Assembly (NCBI GenBank): GCA_964016885.1 | Contig: OZ024743.1 | Location: 78,058,001 to 78,122,000, forward strand | Direction: 5' to 3' | Origin: Eledone cirrhosa | Taxonomy: Eukaryota | DNA: 64,000 nt | Shown here: positions 6,244 to 54,454 of the stretch, one piece after another | Layout of the letters: the number at the start of each line of letters is the position of its first letter | How positions within the stretch are numbered: the stretch's first letter is position 1 | Notes under the pieces: generated by a model | What the model was told of the DNA's origin: nothing | Database searches by the model: none | What the model saw: only the letters and a program-made list of their open reading frames with translations | Made by a program: the position numbers and the translations under genes

Positions 6244-6639
6244 CAAAGATAGGTAGACAATTAGGTTGGTAGACAGATAAATAGATATGTAGCAGACAGA
6301 CAGATAGATATATACATAGATATATACATAGTAAATAAATATATACATAGATAAATAGATAGGTATATATATAAATAGATCATTAGCTAGATAGACAGAT
6401 ACATAGATACATACATACAAATATACATATATAGATGGATATATATACATATATATATATATAGGAAAAGCGTCAGAACCCCGACGGCAGTGTTCAAGCC
6501 GTTTCGACAGCTATTTCGAAACGACTTGTACTCTGCCGTCGGGGTTCTGACTATTTTCTTATTACCCACTCTACTACCCAAAGTATCGAGTACTCTGGGC
6601 CGTTATGGTCCACCTGGTTCTTTACCACACTTCCTTCGT

Positions 6640-25100: not shown

Positions 25101-25368
25101 TCCTCTACCACTGATTCTGACCCCCGTGGTCTTTCATACTCTGTACACACACATCCTCGCTTTTATATATATAGATAATTTTGCTACCGATGTTTTATTG
25201 TTCAACGTGGGTCGAGCTGAAAATATTTTGTGATGTGACCATCTTAGCGACAGGTGCAACGTGCACAGAAAATTTGGTCAAATTCAGTTAGGAATTGTAA
25301 AAACCTTAGGTGTCCAAAGTTGTCCACAGACACACACACATCCTCACTTATATATATATATATATAGA

Positions 25369-26079
25369 CTAGCTGATTTACCCGGCGTTGCCGAGGTTTT
25401 TAATTATGCTAAGAATATACAGCTAGGAAGTAAAAGAAGAACATTATTTGACCCCAACCTGTCAAAATAAGCAGAAGTCTTCAATAATTAATGCAAAAGA
25501 ATATTTAGTGCAATCTATGCTGATAATGAAGGAACATTTTGTTTTAACTGATTTCTTCATTGTAATAATAGTTTTTTTAAAATAAATTCACAATATCCTG
25601 GAATCATAGATAATGCCTGCCTCAAATGTGGGCGAAATTACTTTAAAAATGTAAAAGTTGTAGGTCCCAACGGTTTGAATGGAAAGTCCCATAAGGATTG
25701 ATTTTAGATTGATTTCTCCCTTACAGCATACACTTTAGAAAAAATAATCTTCTTGTACTACCTCGACGGCATATGCAATGCCTGCCTCACATTTGGTAAA
25801 AAAAGCACGAAAAATGTAAAAGTAATTGCAACTTTTAATTTGCATGGAAACTCCCATAAGGATTTTGTCTTGATTATTATCTCCCTTACATCGTGCACTT
25901 TAGAAAAAATAATTTTGCTATCGATTTTTATTGCTCAACGTGGGTCGATTTGAAAAGATTTTGTGATGTGACCATCTTAGCGACAGGTGCAACGTGCACA
26001 GAAAATTTGGTCAAATTCGGTTGGGAATTGTAAAAGCCTTGGGTGTCCAAATCTGTCCACAGACACACACACATCCTCG

Positions 26080-26090
<11 letters not shown>
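25369..26090 (-). mobile_element. Non-autonomous deletion derivative of the same Helitron, in tandem
   Basis: 25369-25515 matches the 3' end at 19929-20078 and ends in CTAG on the - strand. The 5'-end motif CACACATCCTCGCTTTTATATA lies at ~26066-90, and an extra 5'-end copy lies at 25176-25350. Confidence 0.85.
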
Positions 26091-26155
<65 letters not shown>

Positions 26156-26160
<5 letters not shown>

Positions 26161-30710: not shown

Positions 30711-30720
30711 ATATATATAT

Positions 30721-30770
<50 letters not shown>

Positions 30771-30879
30771 CATAATATATATATACCCCAATCCACTACC
30801 CCTACCCTATCCTCCCACTAACACCAACGTCTCTCTGTAAAGTTGGTATCACAACATCCAATCCAAATAAATGAGATAA

Positions 30880-31150
30880 TGAGATCGAGATCGTGTAGGT
30901 GTCATGACAAAAAAACACACAGTGACGCTGTAATGTGGCCGTGTAGGTAACACGGTAAAAAGTTCCCAGTCCACACTGTAAATGTGGTTGGTGTTAGAAA
31001 GGGCATCCAGCCGTAGAAAACCTGCCAGATAGTCCTATATGAGCGAGACACAGCCACCTGACCAACCTTGCCTCAAGTGGGACAACTCCCGTCTAACCCA
31101 TGCTAGCATGGAAGATGGACGTTAAACGAAAATGAGGATGATGATGCTAA
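30880..31150 (+). mobile_element. SINE/RTE-type 3' tail fragment
   Basis: AAGGGCATCCAGCCGTAGAAA..CCGTCTAACCCATGCTAGCATGGAA..GGACGTTAAACG followed by (GAT)n; recurs at ~51605, ~58430 and ~62330. Confidence 0.75.
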
Positions 31151-31617
31151 TGATATATATATCATATATATATATATATATATATAATATGATTTTGGTG
31201 TTTCTATGTGGTTGCTTGGTCTGCATTATATAGTTGTCAGAAGTTGCTGGAATCTTCGTTGCTTTCCCATAATAGAATCGATGAAATACCTTTTCTCCAT
31301 TTCCCTGAATCTGGAAGTTTCTGCTGAAGATAGAATAGAAATTTTCTATTACCACAGCTTGTATACATGTTATGTCATATCATATTCTGTATCTATAAAT
31401 ATATCATATAAGAGTTAATCGCTGTTTTGTCAGTGTGAAGTATTCAACGAAGGACATAACATTCTCTATTCCACAGCTTGTATGTATATCATGTTAATAT
31501 TATATTCTGTATTTATAAATATACCAGAAAAATATATAGTAGCAAGAGTTAATTGCTGTTTTTCCTCTCTAAAGTATTCTAATAGGTGAAAAGATTTTTA
31601 AAAAAACTGTATTAAAC

Positions 31618-31669
31618 ATGACTGAAATTGAAGTATATCAACGAAGAACAGGGAATCAATTAAATACAG
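31618..31669 (+). CDS. Candidate first coding exon of the SLC22-like gene (MTEIEVYQRRTGNQLNT+G)
   Basis: AAACATG context, open frame to a CAG|GTAATT donor in phase 1, matching the phase-1 acceptor at 33749. There is a possible upstream acceptor TAG| at 31585. No homology support. Confidence 0.45.
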
Positions 31670-32025
31670 GTAATTAATTTAATTTCTGTTTATACCTGTC
31701 ATTTGATTAACATATCTTAAGATTTTACAAACTAATTATTGTAATAATAATTTACTTCTACAAATGTTGGTATATTAACCTAAGAAATGTATTAATTTAC
31801 TGTATTTTACCGGAGTTTAAAATATAAATCTAATTAATTAAACTTTCAAATAATTACACTACTTGAATCTGCTGTCTTGATTCTACAGGCATGTACCTTA
31901 TATTGGTGAATTCGTAGAGTCATTAAAGCATTAGATAGAATGTTTTGCAGTATGTGTTTCCAGCTCACTATGCACTGAGTTCAAATCTTCCCTAGGTCAA
32001 CTTTGTCTTTCATTCTTTTGAGATC

Positions 32026-36104: not shown

Positions 36105-36143
<39 letters not shown>

Positions 36144-36417
36144 TATAATAATAATGATTTCTTTATTAACCACAAGGGTTTACATAAAGTAGACATTAAG
36201 GACAGTGCAGGACAATGCAGGACGGTACAAATGGGCATTTCTGCGTGTAAAAAAACAAAAACAGAGGATGTAACAAAAATAACAATGAAAATAACAATGA
36301 AAAATTCCCCAATAGGGGGGAGACTTCGGAGGGACATTTGTGGAGAAAGCCCAGTAAAAAGCCACAATGACCCTGACCACCAAGGCAAGTGCCCTCTCCC
36401 AGTTTTCCACCTTTAGT

Positions 36418-39400
36418 TTACAGATATATACTCAGAGTCGGCCCATTCACTCGGGCCATTCTTGCTTCTCTCACCCATCTTTCAACAAAATGCTGGGAAG
36501 AGAGCACTTCCTTCTCTACTCTGATTTTCCTTTTCAAATGAAATTTGAAAAAGTCAATCAGAGCATCACCGAAGAGGTAAGTGCTCGTCTTCAGCCCTTT
36601 CAAACGTGTCCACCATACTATCTCTTTCGCCATGGCCACCAGACAGATAAAAACTGCCTGCCCTTCCCGGCTAAAGGAGGAGGGCGGGGCAATCCTCACG
36701 ATAGACTCAGATGATAGCTGGATCCGTCCTAAACGCGACAGCAGGTGTTCGACATAAACCCACAAGTCAGCAATTTTCGGACACTGGACGAGTGCGTGCA
36801 GGACGCTTTCGTCGCCCTGCGCGCATCTCGGACATGCCCGGCTGACGGCACCTCCATGCCTGTAGAGTTTATCCCGAACTGGCAAGGCTCCTCGGTAGCA
36901 CTGCCAGGCCAGAGATTTCTGGAAGTTGTCCATAGGCCCTGGCCCGAAAGTTCTTCCGAAGAGATTGGCTAGTTGATTTTCGTCGACGCCTAGAGTTTCC
37001 CCAAGTACGTCGTCGCTCTTCCCCTCCACTAATCCTCTATAGAACGCCGAGGTGGAGTTTCCACCGATCACATTGCCCGATTGGTCGAGGGCTGTGAGCG
37101 CCTGAAGACATTCCAGTCTCCAGGCGCTCCCTCTCGGTCTTCGCTTGACCCAGGACTGCAGCTCCGTCAAGGAAACGAGCTGGGGAAAAACGCGTCTAGC
37201 AAACGGCGACCACACCTGATCACCGTCGAGGAAGAGGTGGAGATGTCGTAGCCTGAGCGCGTGCCTGCGCATCATCAGCCACGGCATGCCCAGCCCTCCA
37301 CGTAGCGGGTGTTGACAACAGATGGACCGCCTGACCATCGGAGCACGTCCCTTCCACAAAAAGCGAAAGAGCAAACGCTCCAGCGCAGTCAGGCGAGGCT
37401 TAGGACAAGGTACGACGGTTAGGCGGTAGCAGATGACAGACGCGATGTACGCGTTAGCCACCTCCGCTCGACCTTTCAGGGATAGCTTCCTCTCCGCCCA
37501 TTTCTGGGTGAGAGAAGCCACCCTGCTCGTCACCTCGTCCCAGTTTTTGTCCGTCTGGAGGTCCGGACCGAACCAGACCCCTAGCAATTTAACCGGTCCG
37601 TCCGTCCAGCGCCCGACGACGCTGTTGGACGGCATGGACCTGCCTCTCCAGGTGCCGAGCTGCAGGCCCACTGACTTTTCCTGGTTGATCATTGCTCCTG
37701 TCACCGCTTCGTATTCTCTTAGTGTAGTGCCGATCGCCTCGATGTGTTTGGCGTTCGACACCACTACGGTGACATCGTCCGCATATGCTGACACGGATCT
37801 TCCGCATCCTAGTTCGCGCGGGACTCCCCTCAACGTCTCCAGTTTGTGCAGTAATGGCTCGAGAGTCAATACGTACAAGAGGGACGAGAGGGGACATCCT
37901 TGGCGGACCGAGCGCATGATGTTGAACGGTTCCGACAGGTGACCGTTCACTCTCACCACAGAGCAGATGTCGCTGTGCATGGCAGCGATCCAGCCTCTGA
38001 AGACGGGCCCAAAGCCAGCCGCCCTCAGGACTGCCGCTAGGTAACGATGGTCGACCCTATCGAAAGCTTTCGACTGATCTAAATTGATCAAGGACCCACC
38101 CGTGCCAGGTTCCCTAGCTACCCTCTCTACGATGTATCGCATGAGGTGGAGGTTGTCGTGGATGGATCTGTTGGGAATGGCGCATGTCTGCGCCTCTCCC
38201 ACCAGACCACCAACGACAAGCGCCAACCTCTTTGCTAGCACCTTGGCCAAAATCTTAAACTCTGTGTTTAGCAGAGTTATGGGCCGGAAATTGTCTATGT
38301 TATCCCCCTTGTTCGGATCCTTTCTCAGCAGTGCCACCGCTCCTCGGCTAACAGAACTGGGAATTCTCCCGTTCTGTTGCCAGTTGCAGTAGACGTCCGC
38401 CAAGAGGCCTCCGAACAAGTCTGGCATCTGTACGTAAAGTTCATAGGGCAGACCATCCAAACCAGGCGATTTACCCCTTGTGCAGCCAGTCATTGCCTCC
38501 CGTACTTCAGCGGCTGTTATCGGCTTTTCGCAACACTTCGCCTCAGTGGCCGAGAGCCGCGGCAGTCCGTCGAGGTAGACACTAAAGTCCATCCCTCTAC
38601 CCGGCCCCCCGCTGCCCCCGAACAGCTGAGCGAAGTGTCGCTGAAAAGCTTCACACATTTGCCCGGGATCGAGTAGCATGCGCCCGTCGTGGTCCACCAA
38701 AGACCGGATCGTGGCTTTGTTGCCACGACGCGCCTCCGCCACTCGGGCCCATTGAACGGCTTTCGTCCCCTCGTGTCTGAGAGCACGCACCCTAGCTCTG
38801 ACAACGCAGCCTTCGTGCTTTGCATTGAAGAATTGGTCAAGGGCCAATTTCGCCGCAAGCACGTCGGTCGCAATGCCTTTGCTAAGCGCCTCGTCTAATT
38901 TTCTAACTAGTTCTCCCTCTGCTCTATTTTTCTCTATTGCTAAAGCCTTACTAAACCTAATCGATTCTATTCTAATCGCTCTTTTCAGAGCAAACCACCA
39001 CTTGTTGTTGACGATGGCCCCCGTCAACGCCCGCTTAACTAGTTCGCTAATCCGGTCTCTGTAGGCCTTGCGCGCTGGTAAGGACGCGTTTAGCTTCCAG
39101 TAGCCGGGTCCTCGTCTATGAAGCCTATCTAAGTCAAGCACACAGGTCACGAATTTGTGGTCCGTGTAGCTGACTATCTTGAATTGTGGACAGCCTATGC
39201 TAGACCTATCTATTTCCCTACAAAATACTCTATCTAGATATGATCTGGATGACCCTATGCGGTTTGTCCAAGTCCACATTGGCACATTCGGGAAATCCAA
39301 TCGGTACCTGTCAGACAGTTCAAAACGCCTGAGCAGGTTGGTGAGGCTCTTGCACCCTCCACCCCTATCCGCTAATCCCACACAGTCCCAGCGTGCATCT

Positions 39401-39837
39401 AAGATCCCGTTCCAGTCGCCCACTAACACTAAAGAGCGGGACGTTCCAAGAAAGGTCTCCAGACGCCGGAAGAAATCAGGCCGCCCTGCTCCTGTCGGGG
39501 CATAGACGGCCACTAGCCTGAAAGCTTGCCCGTCTCCGCTGGTCACGTCCAGCACCACCAGCTTACCCTCTGGGTCCAGGAAGATGGCCCGTATGGCGAG
39601 ATCCAAACCTCTCCGAAAAAGCACAGCAACTCCTCCACCCGATCCAGGACGGCTGGGAGATGCGTACACATCGTAGCCGCCGAAGATCGGTGCGAAGGCC
39701 CGTGCTTCGGAGATTCTGGTCTCGCTGATGGCCACTACATCTATGTTTAGTGACCTGAGGTCGTTGAGCAGGTGACCCTGCTTCCATGACGACCCCAAGC
39801 CACGCGCATTTATGCTGCCTATTCTGAGTGAGGTCAT
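36418..39837 (-). CDS. Tx1 ORF2: APE endonuclease, reverse transcriptase and CCHC finger, 1139 aa, intact
   Basis: SINARGL, ISETR, VYAP, GDWN, SYLDR, TDHK (APE); KSPGLDGL, FRPITLLN, DQSKAFDRV, QGCPLS, YADD (RT); CPRC..ESVLHALVQC. Confidence 0.97.
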   Translation of the reverse strand: MTSLRIGSINARGLGSSWKQGHLLNDLRSLNIDVVAISETRISEARAFAPIFGGYDVYASPSRPGSGGGVAVLFRRGLDLAIRAIFLDPEGKLVVLDVTSGDGQAFRLVAVYAPTGAGRPDFFRRLETFLGTSRSLVLVGDWNGILDARWDCVGLADRGGGCKSLTNLLRRFELSDRYRLDFPNVPMWTWTNRIGSSRSYLDRVFCREIDRSSIGCPQFKIVSYTDHKFVTCVLDLDRLHRRGPGYWKLNASLPARKAYRDRISELVKRALTGAIVNNKWWFALKRAIRIESIRFSKALAIEKNRAEGELVRKLDEALSKGIATDVLAAKLALDQFFNAKHEGCVVRARVRALRHEGTKAVQWARVAEARRGNKATIRSLVDHDGRMLLDPGQMCEAFQRHFAQLFGGSGGPGRGMDFSVYLDGLPRLSATEAKCCEKPITAAEVREAMTGCTRGKSPGLDGLPYELYVQMPDLFGGLLADVYCNWQQNGRIPSSVSRGAVALLRKDPNKGDNIDNFRPITLLNTEFKILAKVLAKRLALVVGGLVGEAQTCAIPNRSIHDNLHLMRYIVERVAREPGTGGSLINLDQSKAFDRVDHRYLAAVLRAAGFGPVFRGWIAAMHSDICSVVRVNGHLSEPFNIMRSVRQGCPLSSLLYVLTLEPLLHKLETLRGVPRELGCGRSVSAYADDVTVVVSNAKHIEAIGTTLREYEAVTGAMINQEKSVGLQLGTWRGRSMPSNSVVGRWTDGPVKLLGVWFGPDLQTDKNWDEVTSRVASLTQKWAERKLSLKGRAEVANAYIASVICYRLTVVPCPKPRLTALERLLFRFLWKGRAPMVRRSICCQHPLRGGLGMPWLMMRRHALRLRHLHLFLDGDQVWSPFARRVFPQLVSLTELQSWVKRRPRGSAWRLECLQALTALDQSGNVIGGNSTSAFYRGLVEGKSDDVLGETLGVDENQLANLFGRTFGPGPMDNFQKSLAWQCYRGALPVRDKLYRHGGAVSRACPRCAQGDESVLHALVQCPKIADLWVYVEHLLSRLGRIQLSSESIVRIAPPSSFSREGQAVFICLVAMAKEIVWWTRLKGLKTSTYLFGDALIDFFKFHLKRKIRVEKEVLSSQHFVERWVREARMARVNGPTLSIYL

Positions 39838-39871
39838 GTTTAAATAGAGTGGAAAAGATGGGAAAGACCAC

Positions 39872-41963
39872 TTACCGTACTTTTGGTAGAGGAGGGATGG
39901 TTTTTACATCCCTTTTCACTTGATCGTCTGGTGAAGGGACCGTTGAATCGTCCCTTCGGCTGGTCGTCGGCTCTTCTAAGAGAATGTCTGAATATACTCT
40001 TCGATTGATGGTTCCTCCTAGGTCCCTGAAATCACCAACTGCGTTGGGGAATTTCGTTTTAATGTTTGTGTATTGTTTCTGTGCTATTTTTAGCAGTCTT
40101 ATGTTAGTTGGCGTTTTGATTGGTGCTGGTATTATGTAGTCCTGTTGTGAAATGTCTGTGTTCAATTATGTAAGTCATTAGTTTCTTGTTGTGTGTGTTT
40201 ATTGCCGTGCATTTGTTTTTCTGGGGGTGGGGTGTGGTTCTGCTATTTTCTTGTCGTTGTTGCTGGGTGTGTGTGTTTTGTTGTTGTGTTTGCGATGTTG
40301 GTGCTTGTGGTGGTGGTGTTGAAGGTGTTGTTGGCGGTGGGGTTGTCGCCGGTGGTGATGGTGGTGCTGGTGTGGGTGGTGATGGTGTTGGTGGTGTTGC
40401 TGCTGTGGGTCTCTTTGCAGTAGACTTTACCCTTTTCTCATTTCTTTCCTCCCTTTTCAAAGGCGACGATGCGCTGCTTCTGCGTTTGTGCCTTCTTGCG
40501 ACCTTTTGCCATCCCTCTCCCACCTCACACTCCATGTCTGATTCTGTAAGGTCGGGGAGGGGTACCAGCTCCACTCTTTCACTTGTTGTTGTTGGTGATG
40601 TTTGCACTGGAGTCTCTGTTGCAGCTGCATTTGGTATTGCTGTTGTTGTTGTTAATATTTCCACTGCTGCTGCTGTCTTTGATTTCCGTGGAGTGGGTAT
40701 GGGTGCCACGGACCTATCGTTCCTGGTTGCCGCTTGTCCTGTTGCTGGTAGCCGTGGAGCCGGATTCAGAAGGAGGGGGGTTTTCTCCTTTCTCAGGGTC
40801 TTCTCGTTGCAGAAGGCCCTGAGGTGAGTCTTCGATCCACAGCGAAAGCATTTCGGGCGTTTGCCCTCAACACTTATGGGCAGTTGAGTGCCGTTATCGA
40901 AGTCTATCACATCCGGGATAGCTTCGATGCACTCCTGGTTGGTTTGGATTAGCATCTCAATGGAGGAGCCGACCCAATCTTCTCTTACTTTTTTCTGTAC
41001 TTGCAGTACAGTTGTTTTGTCCTCGATTCCGACGAGGACAGACGCGGCCAGCCAAGAAGGGGTCATTCCGGGGGGGACGTGGGTCAGTTTGACCCTCACA
41101 ATTTTTTGCCCGCAGTAGGAGGGCACCAACACCATTTCCTCGCTCCTTAGGGTCACTACTGATTGGGCCTTTGCCTCCTGGGGTGTGGCAAAAAGTACGT
41201 CTACGGTGGCGTATTTTTTGCCTCGGGTGATGTGCGTTTTCCTCTGCCACACAGACCCCAAGGCTTTTTGTATTTGGGCCTCTGTGGCTCTTTCCACCCT
41301 ACGGGATTTTGTACTTACTGTACGGTACGTGACCGTACAGTGCTCTTGGGTTTCGAAAAAATTTTTCGCTGCCTTGCAGATTGCTCGGTGTCCGTTCTTT
41401 GTCACCATCTTCTTCGCTTCCTCTAATTCCTCATTTGTTATGAGGATTGTTTCCAAGTTTTTCGCAATACCTGCAAATGAGATTGGTTTTTCTCTGCTGT
41501 TGTTGTTGTCGTCAGAGCTGCTGGTACTTTTGTTGCTGCAGGTACTACGACTACTGCCTCCGCCGCTGTTGCTGTGGTTGTTGTTGGTGTTGCTGCTGCT
41601 AATGCTGTTGTTGTTTATGCTGCTGGTGATGCTGTTGCGGCTGCTACTGTTGTTTTCATTGTCACTGTTGCTGTTGTTATTACGGCTGCTACTGCTATTA
41701 TTCCTGACGTCAGACGAATGAACTGGGTTTTCGTATTTCCCGCACACCTGTTTCGTCGCTGTCGTCGTCGTCGTGGAGAAACCTTGCACGCTTTGCACGA
41801 GACTTTTCTTTTCTTTCGTCGCTTGCGAAAGAGAAGGGAGGGAGAGAGACACATTTAAAGAAGGGAGGGAGAGAGACAATCTTCTCTCTGCTGTAGTGAT
41901 GATTGAGGAAGAAGAAGACGGAATGAGTGGGAGTGACGTATGAAATTTCTTTTTGGTAGCCAT
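39872..41963 (-). CDS. Tx1 ORF1 (gag-like, CCHC knuckle), one frameshift near 40160
   Basis: CFRCGSKTHLRAFC knuckle. ORF 39872-40165 aligns with the C-terminus of copy-2 ORF1 (KFP..GDFR..R.Y.DIL.EE), so it is the shifted continuation. Confidence 0.88.
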
Positions 41964-42200
41964 GTTTTTTTGTTTAAAATGAAATTTTGGGTACAAAACC
42001 CCAATAACTGGTTATTTAACCCCGAAGGGCCAAATAACGGACAGAAAGACCCCTCTCACGAGGAGGAGGGTGTCTTTATCAACAATTTGGTTCAAGTTTT
42101 AAACAATTTACAATTGTTTTAACGGTTAAAAATTACTATACCTTACAGAGCCGAGCCTCCGTCAACCATGGCATTCAATAATAATAATAATAATAATAAT

Positions 42201-42765
42201 ACAAAAGAATTGGTGGGAGCATCAACCACCTCCCATACTTGAAAAAGATCACATCTCAATCTTGTGGAACTTTAGCATCCAAACAGACCGAAAAATAGAT
42301 GCAAACAGACCTGATATAATATTGAAGGACTTTCAAAAGAGGGTATGCCTGCTAATTGATATGTCTGTTCCAATAGACAAGAATGTATCTATAAAAACAT
42401 TTGAAAAATTGAGCAAGTATAAGGACCTGGAGATAGAAATTGGAAAAATGTGGAAATTGAGAACTAAAACAATACCAGTGGTTGTAGGCGCTCTGGGAAT
42501 GATACCTAAGGGGTCTAATGACTACTTATCGCAAATCCCAGGAAACCCGCGTATAGGAGAAATACAAAAGATAGTACTAATGGGAACTGCCCATATACTA
42601 AGGAAGATTCTGTCAATATAAGTACATCACAAGTCTAAACACTAAAGATGCATGTGTGAATATGTATGTTCTTTCTTGAACATGGCGGACCTTGTTGTCT
42701 CTTGAGGTCACTGGTTGTGACTTGGTGATAACTCGTATGAACATAAAGCAAGATAAATGCAACTG
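42201..42765 (+). mobile_element. 3' fragment of a Dong/R4-clade LINE (restriction-like endonuclease)
   Basis: WWEHQP..ILWNFSIQTDRKIDANRPDIIL..LIDMSVP..EKLSKYKDLEIEI.KMW..IPVVVGALG (PD..D RLE), with (TAA)n on both sides. Confidence 0.88.
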
Positions 42766-42784
42766 TAATAATAATAATAATAAT

Positions 42785-45700
42785 GCTTTCTTTATTAACC
42801 CCAAGGGTTTACACAAAGTAGACATTAAGAACAGTACAGGACAATACAGGACGGTACAAAAGGGCATTTCTGCGTGTAAAAACACAAAAAAACAGAGGAT
42901 GTAATAATAGAACAATGAAAAAATTCCCCAATAGGGGGCAGACTTCCGAGGGATATTCGTGGAGAAAGCCCATTAAAAAGCCACAGTGATCCTGACCACC
43001 AGGGCAAGTGCCCTCTCCCAGTTTTCCACCTTTAATTTACAGACACATACTCAGAGTAGGACCGTTCGCTCGGGCCATTCTTGCCTCTCTCACCCATCTT
43101 TCAACAAAAAGCTGGGAAGAGAGCACTTCCCTCTCTACCCTGATTTTCCTTTTCAAATTAAATTTGAAAAAGTTAATCAGGGCATCACCGAAGAGGTAAG
43201 TGCTCGTCTTCAGCCCTTTCAAACGTGTCCACCATACTATCTCTTTCGCCATGGCCACCAGACAGATAAAAACTGCCTGCCCTTCTCGGCTAAAGGAAGA
43301 GGGCGGGGCAATCCTCACGATGGACTCAGCTGATAGCTGGATCCGTTCTACACGCGACGGCAGGTGTTCGACATAAACCCACAAGTCAGCAATGCTCGGA
43401 CACTGGACGAGTGCGTGCAGGACGTTTTCGTCGCCCTGCACGCATCTCGGACATGCCCGGCTGACTCCATGCCTGTAGAGTTTATCCCGAACTGGCAAAG
43501 CTCCTCGGTAGCACTGCCAGCCCAGGGATTTCTGGAAGTTGTCCATAGGCCCCGGCCCGAAAGTTATTCTGAAGAGATTGGCTAGTTGATTTTCGTCGAC
43601 GCCTAGAGTTTCCCCAAGTACGTCATCGCTCTTCCCCCCCACTAATCCTCTATAGAACGTCAGGGTGGAGTTTCCACCGATCACATTGCCCGATTGGTCG
43701 AGGGCTGTGAGCGCCTGAAGACATTCCAGTCTCGAAGCGCTCCCTCTCGGTCTTCGCTTGACCCAGGACTGCAGCTCCGTCAAAGAGACGAGCTGGGGAA
43801 AGACATGTGTAGCAAACGGCGACCACACCTGATCACCGTCGAGGAAGAGGTGGAGATGTCGTAGCCTGAGCGCGTGTCTGCGCATCATCAGCCACGACAT
43901 GCCCAGCCCTCCACGTAGCGGGTGTTGATAGCAGATGGACTGCCTGACCATCGGAGCGCGTCCCTTCCACAAAAAGCGAAAGAGCAAACGCTCCAGTGCT
44001 GTCAGGCGGGGCTTAGAACAAGGTCGACGGTCAGGCGGTAGTATATGACGGGCGCGATGTACGCGTTAGCCACCTCCGCTCGACCTTTCAGGGATAGCTT
44101 CCTCTCAGCCCATTTCTGTGTGAGAGAAGCCACCCTGCTCGTCACCTCGTCCCAGTTTTTGTCCGTCTGGAGATCCAGACCGAATCAGACCCCTAGCAAT
44201 TTAACCGGTCCGTCCGTCCAGCGCCCGACGACGCTGTTGGACGGCATGGACCTGCCTCTCCAGGTGCCGAGCTGCAGGCCCACTGACTTTTCCTGCTTGA
44301 TCATTGCTCCTGTCACCGCTTCGTATTCTCTTAGTGTAATGCCGATCGCCTCGATGTGTTTGGCGTTCGACACCACTACGGTGACATCGTCCGCATATGC
44401 TGACACGGATCTTCCGCATCCTAGTTCGCGCGGGACTCCCTCAACATCTCCAGTTTGTGCAGTAATGGCTCGAGAGTCAATACGTACAAGTGGGACGAGA
44501 GGGGACATCCTTGGCGGACCGAGCGCATGATGTTGAACGGTTCCGAAAGGTGACCGTTCACTCTCACCACAGAGCAGATGTTGCTGTGCATGGCAGCGAT
44601 CCAGCCTCTGAAGACGGGCCCAAAGCCAGCCGCCCTCAGGACTGCCGCCAGGTAACGATGGTCGACCCTATCGAAAGCTTTCGACTGATATAAATTGATC
44701 ATGGACCCACCCGTGCCAGGTTCTCTAGCTACCCTCTCTACGATGTATCGCATGAGGTGGAGGTTGTCGTGGATGGATCTGTCGGGAATGGCGCATGTCT
44801 GCGCCTCTCCCACCAGACCACCAACGACAAGCGCAAACCTCTTTGCTAGCACCTTGGCCAAAATTTTGAACTCTGTGTTTAGCAGAGTTATGGGCCTAAA
44901 ATTATCTGTTATCCCCCTTGTTCGGATCCTTTCTCAGCAGCGCCACAGCTCCTCGGATCACAGAGCTGTGAATTCTCCCGTTCTGTTGCCAGTTGTAGTA
45001 GACGTCCGCCAAGAGGCCTCCGAAACAGGTCTGGCATCTGTACGTAAAGTTCATAGAGCAGACCATCCAAATCAGGCGATTTACCCATTGTGCAGCCAGT
45101 CATTGCCTCCCGGACTTCAGCGGCTGTTATCGGCTTTTCGCAACATTCCGCCTTAGTGACCGAGAGCCGCGGCAGTCCATCGAGGGAGACACTAAAGTCC
45201 ATCCCTCGATCCGGCCCGCCGCTGCCCCCGAACAGCTGTGCGAATTGTCGCTGAAAACCTTCACACATTTGCCCGGGATCGAGTAGCATGCGCCCGTCAT
45301 GGTCCACCAAAGGCCGGATCGTGGCTTTGTTGCCACGACGCGCCTCCGCCACCCGGGCCCATTGAACGGCTTTCGTCCCCTCGTGTCTGAGAGCACGCAC
45401 CCTAGCTCTGACAACGCAGCCTTCGTGCTTTGCATTGAAGAATTGGTCAAGGGCCAATTTCGCCGCAAGTACGTCGGTCGCGATGCCTTTGCTAAGCGTC
45501 TCGTCTAATTTTCGAACTAGTTCTCCCTCTGCTCTATTTTTCTCTATTGCTAAAGCCTTACTAAACCTTATGGACTCTATTCTAATCGCTCTTTTCAGAA
45601 CAAACCACCACTTGTTGTTGACGATAGCCCCGTCAACGCCCGCTTAAATAGTTCGCTAATCCGGTCTCTGTAGGCCTTGCGCGCTGGTAAGGACGCGTTT

Positions 45701-48293
45701 AGCTTCCAGTAGCCGGGTCCTCGTCTATGAAGCCTATCTAAGTCAAGCACACAGATCACGAATTTGTGGTCCGTGTAGCTGACTATCTTGAATTGTGGAC
45801 AGCCTATGCTAGACCTATCTATTTCCCTACAATATACTCTATGTAGATATGATCTGGATGACCCTGTGCGATTTGTCGATGGCCCGTATGGCGAGAAAGA
45901 TGGCCCATATGGCGAGATCCAAACCTCTCCGAAAAAGCACAGCAACTCCTCCCCTCGATCCAGGATGGCTGGGAGATGCGAACACATCGTAGCCACCGAA
46001 GATCGGTGCGAAGGCCCGTGCTTCGGAGATTCTGGTCTCGCTGATGGCCACTACATCTATGTTTAGTGACCTGAGGTCGTTGAGCAGGTGGCCCTGCTTC
46101 CATGACGACCCCAAGCCACGCGCATTTATGCTGCCTATTCTGAGTGAGGTCATGTTGAAATGGAGTGGAAAAGATGGGAAAGACCACTTACTTTACTTCT
46201 CGTAGAGGAAGGATGGTTTGTCCATCCTTTTCACTGCTTGTGGCCTCCTCCGGAAGGATGTCCTTATAAATCCTGCTGGAGAATGCTTGTCGGAAATCTC
46301 CGATGTCTTTGGGGAATTTTTGTTTTAGTGTGGTGTACGTTTTCTGTGTGATGCGAGTGATTTGTATGTGTGGAGGTGGTGTGAACTTTTGGGTTGTTGT
46401 GTAGTCTTCTTCTGTGACGCTGGTGTTGTGTTGGATGTAGTGTAATAATTGGTTGTTGTTCAAATTTAATGCTGTGTAGTGTGTATCGTTTTGGTTGTTT
46501 TGTTTTGTTTGCGTTTGTTGTGGGTTTGTTTCTGTTTCGCTTTTTGGTGACTTTTGTGGTGTTGGTGATGGTGGTGTTGTGGTTAATGATGGTGATGGTG
46601 TTGGTGTTTGATGTGATGGGGTTGGTGATACTGGTGTGGATGGTGGCATATCTGTCCTAACTTTTTTGTTTGATAGTTTATTTGTTTCCCTCTGTATTTT
46701 GTTTTTGGAGGGCGAAGGAAGAGGATTTTTTCTTTTTTGGTTTCTTTTTCTTTTTTTCTTTTTTCCTGATACCGTTTCCCACTCCTCGTCGTCACAATCT
46801 GTCTCCAGTTGCGATAGGTCGGGGAGTGGAAAATCCTCCACAGGCGTTGGTTTTGGTTGTGGTGCGGTGGATAGTGTAGGCGCTGGTGCTAGTTCTGGCC
46901 CGTTGGGTGGTGGTGGTGTTGGTTTTGCTACTGTTGCTGGGGTTGTTGCTGTTACAGTTGCTTCTGTTGTTGCTGCTACAGTTGTTGCTGCCATTTCTGC
47001 TGCTGGTGGTGTTGATGGTTGAGTCACTGGGGTGGGTAATAGAGGTGGCCTCAACCTTTTAGCCTGAGGGCAGAAAGCCCTTAGGTGGGTTCCTTCACCA
47101 CAAACGACACAACTAGGCCTTCTGTCCTCGACGATTACGGTGAGGTGGCTGCCGTCAGTGAGGTCTATTACCTCTGAGATCACCTCAATGCATTTTTGGT
47201 CCGCTTGGATCAGGAGCTCCATCCCAGATCCGGACCAGTTCTCCTGCTTTTCTTTCGCTATTTCGATTATCTTGGTGTTGTCTTTGATGCCGGCGAGGGC
47301 GGCAGCCATTAGCCAGGGAATTTCGATGGCCGGTGGAACGTGGGTCACCCTGATCTTCACGAGTCTTTGGCCACAATAGCTTGGGACGAGTGTGAAGTCG
47401 TCACTTCTTAATGGGGCCATAGAGTGTTCTCTGGCCTCCTGTGGTGTTTCAAAGAATATGTCCACGGTTCCATATTTCTTCCCACGTCTGATGTGGGTTT
47501 TTTTTGCCCACACATGTCCCAAAGCTTTTTGGATTTGGGACTCGGATGCCCGTTCCACTCGGCGCGATTTTATGTTAATCGTACGATAAGACACGGTGCA
47601 TAGGCGCCGATGCTCCATTTTATTAGGGGGGGGGACTGACCCTGTACCCATCTTTCTTTACCATTCTTTTGGCTTCTTCTAATTCCGCCTGAGTTACCTG
47701 GAATGCTTCGCACCTTTTTGCTACTCTGGCAAAAGACAGGCTGGTTTTCTTAATTTCATTGTTGCTGTTGTTGTTATCGTTATTTTTGTTATTGTTAATT
47801 TTAGTTTCAGTTGTGGTGGTGGTGGCGTCAGTGGTGTTCGGTGTGGAAGAGTTCATTTTGGGTGGATTCATTTCGATATCACGAGATAATTTACTTTTTT
47901 CTTTTGTTTCTGTTGTTGCTGTGGTGGTGGTGGGAGTGGCGGCTTCAACACCTGCAGTCATTGGTAATGGCGGAAAATGAATGTCTGCCTGAGACAAATT
48001 TAAAATATTGCTACTGCTTATATTTTTAGTGTTGGCAAACGTAGTAATATTTACAATGGTGGTGTCGGTGTGAGGTGTTAGTTTGTGAGGAAGGTGTGAC
48101 ACTGAGTCGTCTATGATTTTTTCAAAGAAAAATATTTTGTTTGATAATTATAAAAGTTTAAATTTTGGGCTCAAGGCCCCAATCTTTTTGAGTGTCCTTT
48201 TCAGATAACAATGTATGTGCACTTATATACAGTTAACAATAAAATTTTCCATAAATGACAATTTTAAACAACTGAAAATAACAAACCTTTGCC
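42785..48293 (-). mobile_element. Near full-length Tx1 LINE (copy 2), ORF2 disrupted
   Basis: ORF2 and 3'UTR are near-identical to copy 1, with frameshifts and a 312-bp deletion; (AAT)n at 42766-84 and 48294-326. Confidence 0.95.
46188..48102 (-). pseudogene. Tx1 copy-2 ORF1, frameshift at the G-run ~47626-34
   Basis: SFARVAK..ELEEAKRMVKKDG, then CTVSYRT..CVVCGEGTHLRAFC; homologous to copy-1 ORF1. Confidence 0.85.
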
Positions 48294-48326: not shown

Positions 48327-51190
48327 TTCATTTATTAGCCACAAGGGCCGCCATGTAGAGGACAATACAAAGACAGGAACAGTGGGGGTTTAAAATAAGG
48401 TTGAGTAAAAGTACACAATGGCAAGACTAATTTAACAATGAAGATATGAAAAATATAAAATATAAAATAAACTATGCATAAATATAACAAAATAAATTCC
48501 CTGATAGGAGGTGGACGACCCTGGGGTGACTCAGGTACCCCACCAATCCTGAACCACCCTGCGCTTCTAGGGCAGCCCTCTCCTCAAGTTAGCTAGCCTA
48601 TAGGCGCATGGTCAGAGTAGGCCCATTCACATGGGCCATTCTTGCCACATTCATCTACCTTTTAGCAAATGTACTGGGGGGGGGGGCAGCACTTCTTTCT
48701 CCGCCCTCACCTTCCTTTCCAGATGAAACTTGAAGAAGTTGATGAGGGATTGGCCGAAGAGAAAAGTGTCTGTCTTCAGTCCTTTTAATCTGGTCCACCA
48801 TATAACCTCTTTCGCAACGGCCACCAGACAGAGGAAAATTTCCTGCTCTTCCTGACCTAAGGAAGGCGGCGGGTCGATCTTCACTATGGACTCGGCCGAT
48901 AGCCGGATTCTTACTACACGCGACAGTAGCTGTTCGACATAACTACACAAGTCAGTAATGCACGGACTTTGGACAAGTGCGTACAGAACGGTTTCGTCGT
49001 TCTGTGCGCATCTTGGGCAGGTCCGTCTGACAGAACTTCCGTGCCTATAGAGTTTATCCCGAACCGGCAGTGCTCCTCGGTAGAACTGCCAAGCGAGGAA
49101 TTTCTGGAAATTGTCCATCGTCCCCGGCTCGAAAGTCCTCCGGTACAGACTGGTCAGTTCGACTTCGTCGAGGACCTAAGCTTCTCCGAGTGCGTCATCG
49201 CACTTGCCCACCACTAATCCTTTATAGAACTCGAGAGTGGAAGTTTCACTGATCGCATTGTCCGCTTGATCGAGGGCAGTGAGTGCCTGGCAACATCCCA
49301 GGTGCCAGTCACCCTGTCTCGGTCTCTTCTTGACCCAGGACTGCAGCTCAGTCAAAGAAACGAGCTGCGGAAAGGTCCATTTGATAAACGGCGACCACAC
49401 CTGTTCACCGTTTAGGCAGAATATCTGGAGATGTCGTAGCCTCAACGCATGTCTGCGTATCATTAGCCATGGCATGCCCAGCCCTCCGCGTAGAGGGTGC
49501 TGGCAGCAGATGGACCGCCTCACCAACGGAACTTGTCCCCTCCACAAGAATTTGAAGAGGAGCCGTTCCAACTTGACAAGGTGCGGACGGGGCGAAGCAC
49601 GACGGTCAGGCGGTAGTAGATGACGGACGCGATGTACGCAATCGCCACCTCCCCGTGACCTTTCAGTGATAGCTTCCTCCCAGCCCATTTTTGGGTGAGA
49701 CTGGCTACTCTGCTCGTTACCTCGTCCCAATTCTTTTCCACCTGGAGGTTGGTCCGAACCAAACCCCGAGCAACTTTACCGGTCCGTCTGTCCAGCGCCC
49801 CACGACGCTGTTGGACGGCATAGGCTTGCCTCTCCAGGTTCCGAGCTGCAAGCAAACCGACTTTTCCGGGCTAAGTTTGGCTCCTGTCAACCTTTCATAT
49901 TCTTTCAATAAGGTACCGACCACCTCGATTTCTGAGGTGTTCGACACCATCACTGTGATGTCGTCCGCATAAGCCGATGCCGCCTTTCCACGTCCCGGTT
50001 CGAGCGGGATGCCCTGCAACAGCTCCAGCTTCCGCAGTAAAGGCTCGAGAGTCAATATGTACAGAAGGAAAGAGAGAGGGCACCTTTGACGGACCGATCG
50101 GGAGAGCCGAAATGGTTCCGATAGGTGGCCATTAACCTTGACCACCGACCGTGTGTCGCTGTGCATTGCAGCGATCCAGCTTCTGAAGACAGGGCTGAAG
50201 CCAGCCGCTTTGAGGACAAACTCCAGATACTGGTGGTCGACCCTATCGAATGCTTTCGATTGATCTAAATTGATCAGTGCCCCACCGAAGCCAGGTTTAC
50301 ACCCTACCCTCTCTATGATTTATCGCATGAGGTGAAGATTGTCGTGTGTGGACCTTGATGGGATTGCGCAAGTTTGCGCCTCCCCAACCAAATCTTCAAC
50401 GACAAGCGCCAATCTCTTTGCTAACACCTTCGTCAAAATCTTAAACTCTGTGTTGAGCAGAGTTATAGGCCTGAAGTTGTCTAATGTATCCCTCTTGTTC
50501 TCTTCTTTCCTTATCAGCGTCACCACTGCCCTGCTCACAGAACTGGGAATACTCCCATTCTGCTGCCAGTTGCAGTAGAGGGCTTCGAGGAGATCGGAGA
50601 ACAAGTCTTGCATATTTACGTAAAGCCCGTAGGGCAGGCCATCCAAACCGGATGAGTTGCGGCTCATTCAGCCGACAAGGGCGTCCTGAATCTCGGCCTT
50701 TTCTATTTTTCTCTAACGCTAGTTCTTTGCTGAACTCTATCGAAGTTACTCTAATCTCTCTTTTGAGAGCCCCCCACCATCTGTTGTTGATGATCCCCCC
50801 TGTCAACTTTTGCTTAACTAAATTGTTGACTCGGTCCCTGTAAGCCTTACGTGCCGGAAATGACATGTTCAGCTTCCAGTAATCCGGTCCCAACCTACGC
50901 GTTTTATCTAGGTCGACCATACAGATCACAAATTTGTGATCTGATTAGGCGACCGTTTTAAAAAGTGGGCAGCCTACACTATTTCTATCTATTTTCCTAA
51001 TGAAGATCCTGTCTATATACAATCTAGATGACACCATGCGGTTGGTTCATGTCCATACTGGCGCATTGGGGAAATCTAGTCGATACCTGTCAGACAGTTG
51101 GAACTGGCTGATTAGGTGCTTGAGGCTTTTGCACCCCCCGCTCCTATCAGCTACTCCCACACAATCCCAGCGTGCGTCTAAGATGCCGTT
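48327..51190 (-). mobile_element. 5'-truncated Tx1 LINE (copy 3, different subfamily) with an internal deletion near 50680
   Basis: RT and CCHC fragments (AYADDI, CPRCAQNDETV); bounded by AAT repeats at 48294-326 and 51191-203. Confidence 0.92.
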
Positions 51191-51600
51191 AATAATAATA
51201 ATTGTTTCTACTTTTGGCACAAGGCCAACAATTATCCCAGTGTATTACTGGTACTTTATTTTATCAACCCCGTAAGGATGAAAGGCAAAGTTAACCTCGG
51301 AGGGATTTGAACTCAGTCCATAAAGGGCCGTAACTCTTTGCGGCAAAGCATGGCGTCCGACCTTCTACCGATACTGCCAATCAACCACCCATACAACTAC
51401 ATAATAATAATAATAATAATTGTTTCTACTTTTTGGCATAAGGCCAGCAATTACCCAGTACATTACTGGTACTTTATTTTATCGACCCCGTAAGGATGAA
51501 AGGCAAAGTTGACCTCAGCGGGATTTGAACTCAGAATGGAAAGGGCCGTAACTGTATGCATCAAAGCTTGACGTCCGACCCTCTACCGATACTGCCAATC
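51191..51600 (-). mobile_element. Two tandem Nin/Deu-domain-like SINEs
   Basis: Reverse complements of the 34.2-kb SINEs, each with an (ATT)n tail. Confidence 0.88.
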
Positions 51601-51604
51601 ACTG

Positions 51605-54130
51605 TTTTACGTCCATTCTTCCACGTTAGCATGGGTTAGATGGGTTGTCCTGTTGTGGGCAATGCCAGGTCAGGTGACTATGTCTTGCTCATACAGAACT
51701 GATTTGGGCTTGATTTCTACAGCTGGATGCCCTTCCTAACATCAACCTCATTTACAGTGGGTTCTGGGTGCTTTTTAACATGGCACCTACACAACCACTT
51801 TACAGTGTGGGCTGAGTGATTTTTTGTCATGACACCTGGGGCCATATTGTCTATAAGCTTCAGCTTCAGCTTGTACCCATGAGAAGAAGGGTCTTCTGTA
51901 TTACTGCATAACGCCAGCGGTCTCAGTCTGTGTCATTGCCTTTGAGAGGTGCAATTGGGCAAGATCAGCTTTTATCACCTCATCCCAGGTCTACTTTGGT
52001 CTCCCTACTCCAAGACATCCATCGACTTTTAGTGCTCTGCACCTTTTTATGCAGCTGTCATCCTTCATACGCATCACATATCCATACCAACATAATCTCC
52101 TCTCCTGCACACAACATTTGATTCCTCTGATGCCTAGTCTCTCTCTTAATTCATTTATGCTTTGCCATTCGCGTATATTACACATTCGCATATATTACAC
52201 ATCCATCGGAGCATGCAATCTTCATTTCTTTCTAATCTACACAAGTCTTGTGCACAACACCCAGGTCTCACTACCATGCGACATTGCTTTCATATGCACG
52301 AATCATACAGTCTGCTTTTCATTTTGAGGGAAAACCCTTTTGCAGCTTGCAGTGGTAGTAACTCCCTGAACTTGCTCCATCCCGTTCTTAATCGGGCTAC
52401 TGTACTTTCAGAACACCCACCTTCACTGCTAATTCGCTCACTTAGGTAGCAGAAGCTGTCTACTGTTTCTACCAAGCCCTCTCAGAATTTGGTAGTGCTT
52501 GTTTCTTGTGATCATTTACTGCTTACTGTCCCAGTGCAGCTGTTACATGTAAAGCGTATATTCTTAGCTAAACTTCCTTACATTCCACTACACATCTTGT
52601 GTACCCATTGTTTACATATGGGGCAAAGGATGAAATTTCTACCTACACCTTTCCTACATACTCAGCAATGCCATTTCCCTGAGGGGATCTGGGTTCTGTT
52701 TTCTCTTCTACTTACTAGGACCTTAGTCTTTGTCAGGTTGACTTTGTGACCCCGTCTTTCTAGGCCCTGCTTCCATGTTTGGAATTTCTTCTCTAGTTCC
52801 ACTATAGATTCAGCGATAAGTGTAAGATCATCCATGTACAGACATTCCCATGGGCATCCGGTCTTAAACTCCTCTTTTATAGCCTGCAATATGATAATAA
52901 ACAGGAGAGGGCTAAGATCAGAGCCCTGGTGGACACCAACCTGTATGATAAATTCCTCGCTATAGTCATTGTTAACCCTAACTTTGCTGACTGCTCCCCT
53001 ATACATGGCTTGTACACCATTCACAAGCCATTCATCTACTCCTAGTTTTCTAAAAGCCTACTAGATTATAGCACTGGGCACTCTGTCGAAGGCTTTTTCC
53101 AGATCGACAAATACCAGCTAGAGCGACTTACCTTTAGCTAGGTACTTTTCCTGTAACTGCTTCACAAGGAAGAGTGCATCAGTGGTGCTTTTTCCTGGCA
53201 CAAACTTAAACTGCATCTGATCTAGATTTACCCTGTCCCCAATCAGCTGTGCTATAACTCTTTCTGTTATTTTCATGACCTGGTCCATCAGCTTTATACC
53301 TCTATAGTTTCCTCTATTTAGTGCATCTCCTTTACCCTTGTAGCAGTTGACAATGTTGCTGTTGTGCCAATCATTTGTAATGATGCTTTCTAGTATTAGT
53401 TAACAATATGTATAGTTATGGTGTGACCTGCCGACCCAGATGCTTTCAGCATCTCGGCAGCTATACTCGATGGACCAGTTGCTTTCCCAGTCATCATATC
53501 CTTAATTGCCTTACTTACTACACTGCTGCTGACTTGTATTGCTTGGGCCTCTATGGGGTCCACTTGGAGTAGCGTCCCTTTCTCCCATGAATTCTCCTCA
53601 TTTAGTAAACTTTCATAATGGCTCTTCCACACAGCTTTCTTCTCGACACTTGTGAGAAAAAGCTCACCTTTATCACCCTGGACATACTTCTCACCAATGA
53701 CATCACAATTTTCTCTAACACACTGCCTCACAATCTTGAACAGTTTGTTAAGGCAGTAGTATGCATTAAGGACACATAAAACCTATCCTTATGCTCGTCT
53801 GGCAACCCAGATTGGGGTACGTAAGCTGATATAAATGTAGCAATTGTTTTATTCAAGACTAGTCTGAATTTAATGATTCTTGCGTTTACCCAGTTCACTG
53901 AGATTATCTTATCCACGCATTTGTCAGCAAATAAGAAACCTACACCACCCAACTCATTGTCATTTCCCACCCAGAAAAATTTGTAGCACTGATTTTTGCC
54001 TACAAGGACTCTAGCAGACTCTCCTCTCCCTCTAGTCTCTTGCACACAACATACACCAATTTCCATTTGCTCTAACTTCTCTATGATTTCTCTTGCTCTT
54101 CCTTTCATTGTGCTCACGTTGATGGTGCCA
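51605..54130 (-). mobile_element. Decayed RTE-clade LINE with internal deletion
   Basis: CCVQETR, GGVGFL, SAYVPQ (APE); GVHQGSDLSPLLF, YMDDL (RT); the 3' tail is shared with the SINE-like repeats. Confidence 0.88.
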
Positions 54131-54454
54131 AATCAGAGTTTTGGGCATTTGTCATCACTGGTGGGGAGGGTGTATTTTTGTGGGGTAATGTGTATGATTT
54201 CTGTCTCTGAATTAAAGCTTTTGCATGGAAGCTTGGTAACTCGTGGATTCATATTTATTTATTTCGGGTTGTTCCATCATCTTCAGCTCATCCATAGATA
54301 ATTATAAACAATAATTTCTTCAGGGCAAGGATAGAAAAGACGGTAGTAGTAATGGCAGAATTGTTGGCGTAGGTAATGGGTGAGGATATGTTGTATATCA
54401 TCATCATCATCATCTTCGTTTAACGTCCATTTTACACGCTAGCATGGGTTAGAC

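Follow-up and report, generated by a model that had tools for sequence, protein, structure and literature searches.

We analyzed a 64,000-nucleotide stretch of the Eledone cirrhosa genome (assembly GCA_964016885.1, contig OZ024743.1, positions 78,058,001 to 78,122,000 of the forward strand; here called the window) that holds three copies of Tx1-like long interspersed nuclear elements (LINEs). Copy 1 belongs to a young family that, together with older relatives elsewhere in the genome, makes up lineage A; copy 2 is an old member of family B, and copy 3 belongs to a third family, C. Lineage A is almost certainly a chimera in which the 5' untranslated region (5'UTR) and first open reading frame (ORF1) of another family, X, are joined to the last 15 ORF1 codons, the ORF2, and the 3'UTR of B. 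At the joint, or seam, the X-derived part ends at a sequence resembling a splice donor, and we put at roughly 45% the probability that this motif of X took part in making the joint, on RNA. The original prediction, made from copies 1 and 2, was that ORF1 and promoter had been exchanged between lineages near the ORF1 stop codon, and the seam, the synonymous divergence, and the trees described below support it at the level of families.

In blastn comparisons, copy 1 matched copy 2 at 94.6% identity over 3,135 columns (36137-39268 versus 42766-45877) and at 94.8% over a further 343 columns (39578-39920 versus 45894-46235), which bears out the estimate that ORF2 and 3'UTR are more than 90% identical; about 310 bp between the two aligned blocks is absent from copy 2. 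The DNA alignment stops at 39920/46235, consistent with the sharp loss of similarity that had been noticed by eye. Upstream of this point there were just two short matches (74% over 74 nt and 82% over 44 nt), and the low-complexity parts and 5'UTRs, described earlier as not aligning, gave no DNA match. The ORF1 proteins were identical at 130 of 290 positions (45%; E = 5e-79) and at 103 of 190 in the core, so that the cores are indeed about half identical (45 to 54%), and both of the CCHC strings quoted for them are present. Two details of the earlier description needed correction. The 266-nt spacer between the ORFs of copy 1 (39838-40103) is an artifact of a private 2-bp deletion and not a family feature: the 2 bases missing near 40162 are present in five of five other A copies, and contigs of two public runs (X5 and X6) carry them as an insertion of TG at 40156. 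Judging by 7 of the other 10 full-length A copies, the family ORF1 is 697 to 698 amino acids (aa) long and stops 34 to 35 nt short of the ORF2 ATG. Because the spacer of copy 1 is an artifact, the similarity break lies inside ORF1, 45 nt ahead of the family's true stop at 39872-39874. In addition, copies 1 and 2 are not directly adjacent, as a 564-bp plus-strand fragment (42202-42765) lies between them.

The seam is a family-level feature and not a local accident, a misassembly, or a product of fast ORF1 evolution. We searched the 3.0-Gb genome and drew copies from the best-scoring or first-listed matches. The type A ORF1 of copy 1 had 1,724 candidate matches, the best 40 of which were scored and were about 100% identical, and the type B ORF1 of copy 2 had 2,551 candidates that were 93 to 96% identical. 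All 30 A loci were colinear with copy 1 across the 5'UTR, ORF1, and the start of ORF2, with 98.7 to 99.8% identity; 28 of 30 B loci matched copy 1 from 39920 onward only, and the remaining 2 were deleted over the junction. The 10 A copies that we fetched were all full length and 98.0 to 99.7% identical to copy 1 end to end, with both ORFs open in 7, and every B copy fetched had broken ORFs. When 11 A-type and 11 B-type copies were compared in 150-column windows, A-B identity was 0.52 to 0.69 upstream of the break, 0.91 in the first window after it, and 0.92 to 0.98 from the second window on. Within ORF2, A-B identity (0.94 to 0.98) equaled or exceeded B-B identity (0.94 to 0.97), and there were 64 diagnostic A/B differences in 3,785 shared columns. 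The A-lineage seam string had 2,296 matches in the genome, with none for its control, and contigs of two other public runs (type unknown) bridge the seam. Copies 1 and 2 do lie in the same orientation only 0.6 kb apart, as would suit an event confined to the window, whether gene conversion between neighboring copies or a misassembly. We give such an event next to no chance, because the same structure occurs genome-wide (the 30 A loci are spread over four large contigs), because copy 1 is no closer to copy 2 (94.6%) than to B copies elsewhere (92 to 97%), and because contigs from other runs span the seam. The worry that the chimera might be unique to this site or misassembled can therefore be set aside.

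We identified the second parent, family X, with a degenerate pattern for the conserved ORF1 peptide LVPSYCGQ that left out the codon used by A and by B. This pattern captures only part of ORF1 diversity; it had 90 matches in the genome (control, 0), among them both A-like and B-like variants. Trees were built from 25 rows with family C as the outgroup. In the ORF1-core tree, A and the older A-lineage copies grouped with X (L156 and L149) at 100/100 support, with B outside, whereas in the ORF2 tree the A lineage was nested within a star-like radiation of B (100/100) and X fell with other families (100/100). Approximately unbiased (AU) tests rejected the swapped topologies (p = 0.0003 and 0.0005), the groups having been named with the trees already in view. 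As a check on the exchange, it had been proposed to build trees of ORF1 and ORF2 separately; these are incongruent, with full support on the conflicting clades.

A crossover profile of majority-level differences among 17 X, 6 A, and 4 B copies gave the same picture. Upstream of the seam, in ten windows before the ORF2 ATG, A differed from X at 4 to 19 positions per 106 to 150 columns (4 to 11 in the eight windows well upstream of the seam) and from B at 34 to 69. Downstream, A differed from X at 12 to 26 positions per window and from B at 0 to 4. Since the profile flips at the seam, X must have given the 5' module and B the 3' module of a chimeric A. In the 5' half the A-lineage root was at a distance of 0.0066 from the node of X, and in the 3' half its distance from the node of B was 0.005. 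Trees of 1.4 kb on each side of the seam showed one origin, with the same basal copies (L200 and L201) in both halves and a ladder of copies leading to the young A family. The A lineage has a single origin, being monophyletic in both halves, and the ladder from older to younger copies shows that the recombinant was amplified.

We estimated substitution rates by the Nei-Gojobori method from one intact A copy against six B copies. The number of synonymous substitutions per site (dS) between A and B was 0.067 to 0.117 in ORF2. In the ORF1 core the proportion of synonymous differences (pS) was 0.775, which is saturated, with 0.345 nonsynonymous substitutions per site (dN), and after the core dS was 1.14. 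Rapid protein evolution had been named as the outcome to expect if ORF1 and ORF2 had similar dS; they do not. These values bear directly on the idea that there was no exchange, only a single continuous lineage in which ORF2 evolves much more slowly than ORF1 and the 5'UTR. Branches in the ORF1 core were indeed about 3 to 4 times as long as ORF2 branches across the trees, and inside the A lineage the 5' half accumulated about 0.029 changes per site, versus about 0.006 to 0.008 in the 3' half. However, continuous descent does not account for saturated synonymous sites in ORF1 beside an ORF2 dS of 0.07 to 0.12, nor for a change that is a step at one base with no gradient. It also leaves X close to A in ORF1 (pS, 0.12) and far from it in ORF2 (pS, 0.35), and the AU tests rejected a common tree. 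We therefore consider this explanation very improbable.

At the majority level, young A and B differed by 10 synonymous and no nonsynonymous changes in the first 465 ORF2 codons, and young A and X differed in ORF1 with a pS of 0.12 and a proportion of nonsynonymous differences (pN) of 0.03 (ratio, 0.26). The small number of nonsynonymous changes in both comparisons indicates that both modules stayed under purifying selection. Synonymous change since the swap was about four times higher in the X-derived ORF1 (pS of 0.12 to X) than in the B-derived ORF2 (pS of 0.03 to B), and tree branch lengths gave the same ratio within the A lineage. RNA-level constraint on ORF2, later refreshment of ORF2 from B, and an older X sample are all possible causes of this fourfold difference.

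We compared seam strings from 30 A, 24 B, and 29 X loci (a slash marks the seam). All 30 A loci read ...GACGATCAAG/TGAAAAGGGATG...GGTAAGTGG. At the same point X read ...GACGATCAAG/GTAAGTGA in 29 of 30 loci, i.e., CAAG/GTAAGT, with a continuation also given as GTAAGTGATCC; the X junction string had 490 genome matches at no more than 1 mismatch, some of them from related families, and its control had none. In most of the 12 B strings listed, of 24 found, B read ...AAGCAG/TGAAAAGGATGG, and through the end of ORF1 it read ...AAGCAG/TGAAAAGGATGGAGAAACC...GTAAGGTAAGTGG. Thus, A runs through X ORF1 to the exon side of GTAAGT, then through the last 45 nt of B ORF1, and continues with B's own GTAAGT, spacer, ORF2, and 3' end. 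According to these strings, the X part stops precisely at the exon border of a consensus 5' splice site, and the B part starts after an AG. The joint is nonhomologous, with 2 shared bases (AG), and it leaves the C-terminal ORF1 peptide doubled in A, one version coming from each parent. A homologous crossover within the shared GTAAGT is ruled out, because A carries B's 45 nt upstream of the motif after X's complete ORF1 end.

Eight A/B differences within 39877-39916 might have suggested a blurred breakpoint. We rejected this possibility because older A-lineage copies are B-like there: over 39875-39917 they read GATGGAGAAACCATCCTTCCTCTACGAAAAG, which is B apart from 1 or 2 bases and one extra G. 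Because these older copies are almost B-like, the additional A/B differences in the 45-nt stretch must have arisen later. Basal copies carry A directly after the seam; C and G appear next, and the young family has T. X's exon end followed by A or C had 10 matches: 9 were variants from older A-lineage copies, and the tenth was an X copy bearing a point change. The position just past the seam (39918; compared also in L142, L150, and L197 to L206) is the second base of a GNG codon, which encodes Glu, Ala, Gly, or Val, and it has changed at least four times on a small tree, making it an unusually variable site.

The GTAAGT motif at the ORF1 end was kept in all six families examined (A, B, C, X, G152, and G147; loci L062 to L090 and L141 to L196), and it was kept in two reading frames: A and B take their stop codon, TAA, from within the motif, and X reads GGT AAG TGA. 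Conservation of one motif in two frames argues that the constraint acts on nucleotides, and such conservation fits a signal like a 5' splice site.

The genomic arrangement of these elements bears on how two families could have met. All 30 A loci have (ATT)n directly upstream of the 5' end. Head-to-tail arrays at (ATT)n are common: the 3' end of another element precedes 16 of the 30 A loci, and the count for B loci is at least 9 of 28. An X 3' end lies immediately upstream, in the same orientation, in 3 of the 28 B loci. Tandem co-insertion at a shared target, which the original prediction had raised as a possible aid to the exchange, is therefore plausible. Seam matches of A also occur in same-strand series spaced about 6.05 to 6.9 kb apart (e.g., G000 C1:55427431-55453372); these are head-to-tail arrays of full-length copies, as would be expected if new copies enter the (ATT)n tails of old ones.

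From the seam strings and this arrangement we propose an origin by splicing. An X copy would have stood head to tail upstream of a B copy, and a read-through X-to-B transcript would have been spliced from CAAG/GTAAGT at the end of X ORF1 to a cryptic CAG in the tail of B ORF1, with loss of X ORF2 and the greater part of B's 5' half. B-type ORF2 protein would then have retrotransposed the hybrid RNA via B's own 3' end, giving a new lineage whose promoter and ORF1 would be older than its ORF2 and 3' end. The neighborhood that this model needs does occur, in the 3 B loci with an X 3' end just upstream. Involvement of the X motif at the RNA level is the part of the proposal to which the 45% applies. 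The full scenario, in which an amplifying LINE lineage was born by the spliceosome from head-to-tail families formed via (ATT)n tails, with splicing of their read-through RNA and retrotransposition of the hybrid, is more tentative, and we would not bet on it. If it is true, GTAAGT at ORF1 ends makes the front halves of these elements (promoter plus ORF1) exchangeable cassettes, and two side observations given below, a second ORF1/ORF2 conflict and the X-like 5'UTR of young A, would be further products.

Several results weigh against splicing. Among public runs recorded as RNA, none contained the element, and in contigs of four public runs (type unknown) we saw no joint at the donor. B offers a poor acceptor context, which is purine rich, with only 9 pyrimidines in the 21 bases before CAG. 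The first base after the seam is A in the basal copies L200 and L201 and in several later steps of the ladder, and B has T; the site is hypervariable, with A, C, G, and T all occurring, so that the founder's base may differ from that of the basal copies. All A-lineage copies also carry an extra G (GGG versus GG) 8 nt past the seam that is absent from the B strings listed. Retrocopies spliced at the A donor, sought as the donor-exon string followed by a non-GT, had no match in the genome, and those spliced at the B donor had 6 matches, all of which were small local deletions inside the motif; the retrocopy and exon-end filters miss about half of the possible joints. Finally, the seam could coincide with the donor by chance, as viable joints cover some 60 nt around the ORF1 end by our estimate, which was not computed.

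An untemplated base at the joint fits a template jump by reverse transcriptase better than it fits splicing. In such a jump, the enzyme would have left the B RNA 45 nt before the ORF1 end, added an untemplated base, and continued on X RNA; its landing point may have been the 3' terminus of an X RNA that had been cleaved at the donor. The joint is nonhomologous with only the 2 bases AG in common, and the base after it in basal copies matches neither parent, both of which are consistent with a jump. For mouse L1 mosaics three mechanisms have been discussed, among them strand switching, which can operate only if the two families are expressed together (Sookdeo et al. 2013, PMC3600994); template switching is listed for L1 chimeras (PMC13174262). 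The terminal branches of X (0.017 to 0.044) and B (0.018 to 0.033) overlap in length, which also speaks for this route. A switch alone leaves unexplained why X ends exactly at GTAAGT, since the whole viable zone would be open to an internal switch, and we regard it as possible at odds well below even.

The same chimera could also have been made on DNA. A 5'-truncated B copy may have inserted at or behind an X copy, so that its 5' end was joined to the X ORF1 end and X ORF2 was lost, or two genomic copies may have undergone illegitimate recombination; by either route, a hybrid locus under the X promoter would have founded the lineage. These elements do insert into each other's (ATT)n tails, as the loci that follow another 3' end attest. 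In mouse L1 a young 3' end recruits an older 5' end, for which an RNA/DNA heteroduplex at the insertion site has been proposed (PMC3600994), and X copies are older than B copies (X-X identity of 0.90 to 0.96 in most windows versus 0.92 to 0.98 for B-B). However, a DNA event leaves the coincidence of seam and donor unexplained, and, according to an argument quoted in PMC3600994, recombination of dead genomic copies would seldom leave both ORFs intact. When we looked for a founder-like locus, with (ATT)n, no more than 15 nt, and then GTAAGTGATCC, there was 1 match, an ordinary 5'-truncated X copy, although an exact-match search of this kind is weak. Taken jointly, the two DNA routes seem improbable. 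Involvement of the X donor motif on RNA remains our preferred reading of the joint.

Other observations touch on module exchange in these families. The first 200 nt of young A (41977-42176 in copy 1, within the 5'UTR) were 0.97 identical to X copy L156 and just 0.88 to 0.93 identical to the older A-lineage copies L150 and L142, which have common 5'UTR variants that are absent from young A. Young A may have undergone another, more recent exchange in its 5'UTR. We also found a second ORF1/ORF2 conflict, involving L141, L143, L147, L149, L152, L155, and L156, in which X is sister to the L152 group in ORF2 and lies outside L152 plus L147 in ORF1 (AU p = 0.006 and 2e-104, again with groups named after the trees were seen). 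Judged from these sequence comparisons, module exchange may be recurrent.

The domain content and relatives of ORF2 suggest that the elements belong to the Tx1 group of the L1 clade of non-long-terminal-repeat retrotransposons. The Pfam families Exo_endo_phos (E = 3e-14), RVT_1 (E = 6e-29), and zf-RVT (E = 1e-7) were all above their cutoffs. The best named relative was the Xenopus Tx1 ORF2 (YTX2_XENLA), with 29% identity over 83% of the query (330 bits; E = 7e-93), and the closest named protein came from the octopod Argonauta hians (69% identity). Human L1 ORF2p was colinear over residues 5 to 855 (E = 1e-52; 182 bits, in a search separate from that giving the Tx1 score), and no protein named L1 ORF2 was among the 120 matches listed. 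Insertion is sequence specific, (ATT)n being present at the 5' end of every A locus and also as the tail of copies 1 and 2. The CCHC spacing C-x2-C-x4-H-x4-C is visible in both ORF1 types, with no Pfam family above the cutoff. For ORF1, no solved relative was found by sequence, and residues 170 to 400 of the A type had no database homologue at an E value of 0.001 within the length band searched, which says nothing about novelty.

The positions of the elements within the window are given in Table 1.

Table 1. Elements and seam features in the window (positions count from the first base of the 64,000-nucleotide stretch)
Feature	Position	Strand	Remark
Copy 1, full-length member of young chimeric lineage A	36156-42176	-	6.0 kb
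ORF2 of copy 1, B-derived	36418-39837	-	Intact, 1,139 aa; APE endonuclease, reverse transcriptase, zinc-binding tail
ORF1 of copy 1 as present	40104-41963	-	619 aa; shortened by private 2-bp deletion near 40162
X-derived 5' module of copy 1	39919-42176	-	5'UTR plus ORF1 through ...GACGATCAAG
5'UTR of copy 1, X-derived	41964-42176	-	
Seam in copy 1	39918-39919	-	39919, last X-derived base (G); 39918, hypervariable base (T here)
B-derived last ORF1 codons in copy 1	39875-39917	-	Second version of the C-terminal peptide that X already supplied
GTAAGT motif of copy 1	39870-39875	-	Contains true ORF1 stop TAA, 39872-39874
GTAAGT motif of copy 2	46186-46191	-	
3'UTR of copy 1	36105-36417	-	AATAAA at 36162-36167; (ATT)17 tail at 36105-36155
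(ATT)8 target microsatellite adjoining 5' end of copy 1	42177-42201	-	
Fragment of unrelated LINE-like element separating copies 1 and 2	42202-42765	+	564 bp
Copy 2, old member of family B, the 3' parent	42766-48293	-	
ORF1 of copy 2, B type	46188-47657	-	489-aa open frame; ends 34 nt before ORF2 ATG
B site corresponding to seam	46233-46236	-	...CAAGCAG/TGAAAAGG; 45 nt ahead of B stop codon
Copy 3, 5'-truncated member of third family C (outgroup)	48600-51190	-	

Copies 1, 2, and 3 each have (ATT)n at the end and (ATT)n before them. In copy 2, ORF2 is disrupted by frameshifts and the deletion of about 310 bp, and ORF1 is frameshifted near 47640. The ORF2 of copy 3 has 69 to 80% protein identity to that of copy 1, and family C has 4,679 candidates in the genome. 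The fragment between copies 1 and 2 contains an open frame at 42130-42621 (163 aa), and (TAA)6 at 42766-42784 serves as the tail of both this plus-strand fragment and copy 2. The same microsatellite lies on either side of the fragment, and the element recurs beside Tx1 copies at L001, L002, and L152. A further Tx1-like ORF2 fragment at 4260-6249 (minus strand) has 57 to 64% protein identity to copy 1 ORF2, and open frames of another, distant reverse transcriptase element lie at 52662-54132 (minus strand; 29% identity over 215 aa). At 51190-51601, beside (TAA)n, a 218-bp unit is present in 1.9 repeats, and its sequence recurs directly after the (ATT)n tails of Tx1 copies L147, L150, L155, and L156; it looks like a short nonautonomous element using the same target. 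The plus strand is C rich at 24001-32000, with a GC content of 0.55 to 0.59 and a GC skew of -0.54 to -0.60 at 26 to 30 kb, and a tandem-repeat search of this GC-skewed 24- to 32-kb stretch found none at a score of 200.

The Tx1 group of the L1 clade includes the microsatellite-specific families Kibi and Koshi. Like members of the group, the elements described here have two ORFs, an APE endonuclease, a reverse transcriptase, and a zinc-binding tail, and they target one repeat type, here (ATT)n. Thirteen recently active L1-Tx1 families have been described in Octopus vulgaris (PMC13282606). The main text of that paper mentions neither an (ATT)n target nor a mosaic origin of an active family, and the strings "recombin" and "chimer" occur in it 0 times.

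The closest parallels to lineage A are the mouse families L1MdTf and L1MdGf, which arose by recombination of F-type and A-type families according to Sookdeo et al. (2013, PMC3600994). As in lineage A, the promoter and ORF1 of one family were combined with another family's ORF2 and 3' end to give a new and successful family, incongruent trees flank the breakpoint, and the 5' partner was older than the 3' partner; the candidate mechanisms discussed there are the same three as here (PMC3600994). The mouse breakpoints lie inside ORF2 at homologous positions (PMC3600994), whereas the A-lineage joint is unequal, with the last 15 ORF1 codons present twice. Unlike the mouse hybrids, lineage A had parents whose ORF1 proteins are only about 45 to 54% identical, its 5' part ends at a splice-donor-like motif, and it probably belongs to the Tx1 group, with a microsatellite target, in an invertebrate genome. 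As mouse LINE-1 hybrids are known, lineage A is a clean new example of a hybrid LINE family and not a new principle. It shows that the exchange of modules between LINE families, for which rodent and primate L1 have so far been the main source of examples, also gives rise to successful families among Tx1-like elements of an invertebrate. Since the parents' ORF1 proteins are only about half identical, the ORF1 protein and promoter are not tightly coadapted to ORF2 and the 3' end in these elements. Human-mouse chimeric L1 constructs showed that ORF1 and ORF2 modules from diverged elements can cooperate (PMC3091869); those were laboratory constructs, whereas the A-lineage swap was natural and was later amplified. 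For annotation, the consequence is that Tx1-group families are not classifiable from ORF2 alone.

A second parallel concerns the seam itself. Human L1 insertions are known that carry 5' exons of host mRNAs ending exactly at splice donors, for which cis- or trans-splicing has been proposed, together with a role in promoter renewal (PMC13174262). In those insertions, as in lineage A, a foreign 5' part that ends at a splice donor is fused to a coding-competent LINE (PMC13174262). The human chimeras involve host gene exons and are single insertions (PMC13174262), whereas lineage A acquired the whole 5'UTR and ORF1 of another LINE family and grew to over 2,000 copies. One genome still preserves the two parents, the precise seam, and the intermediate steps of the ladder in readable form, which makes lineage A unusually well suited to asking how hybrids form. 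The position of the seam on a conserved splice-donor-like motif provides a concrete hypothesis, testable with RNA data.

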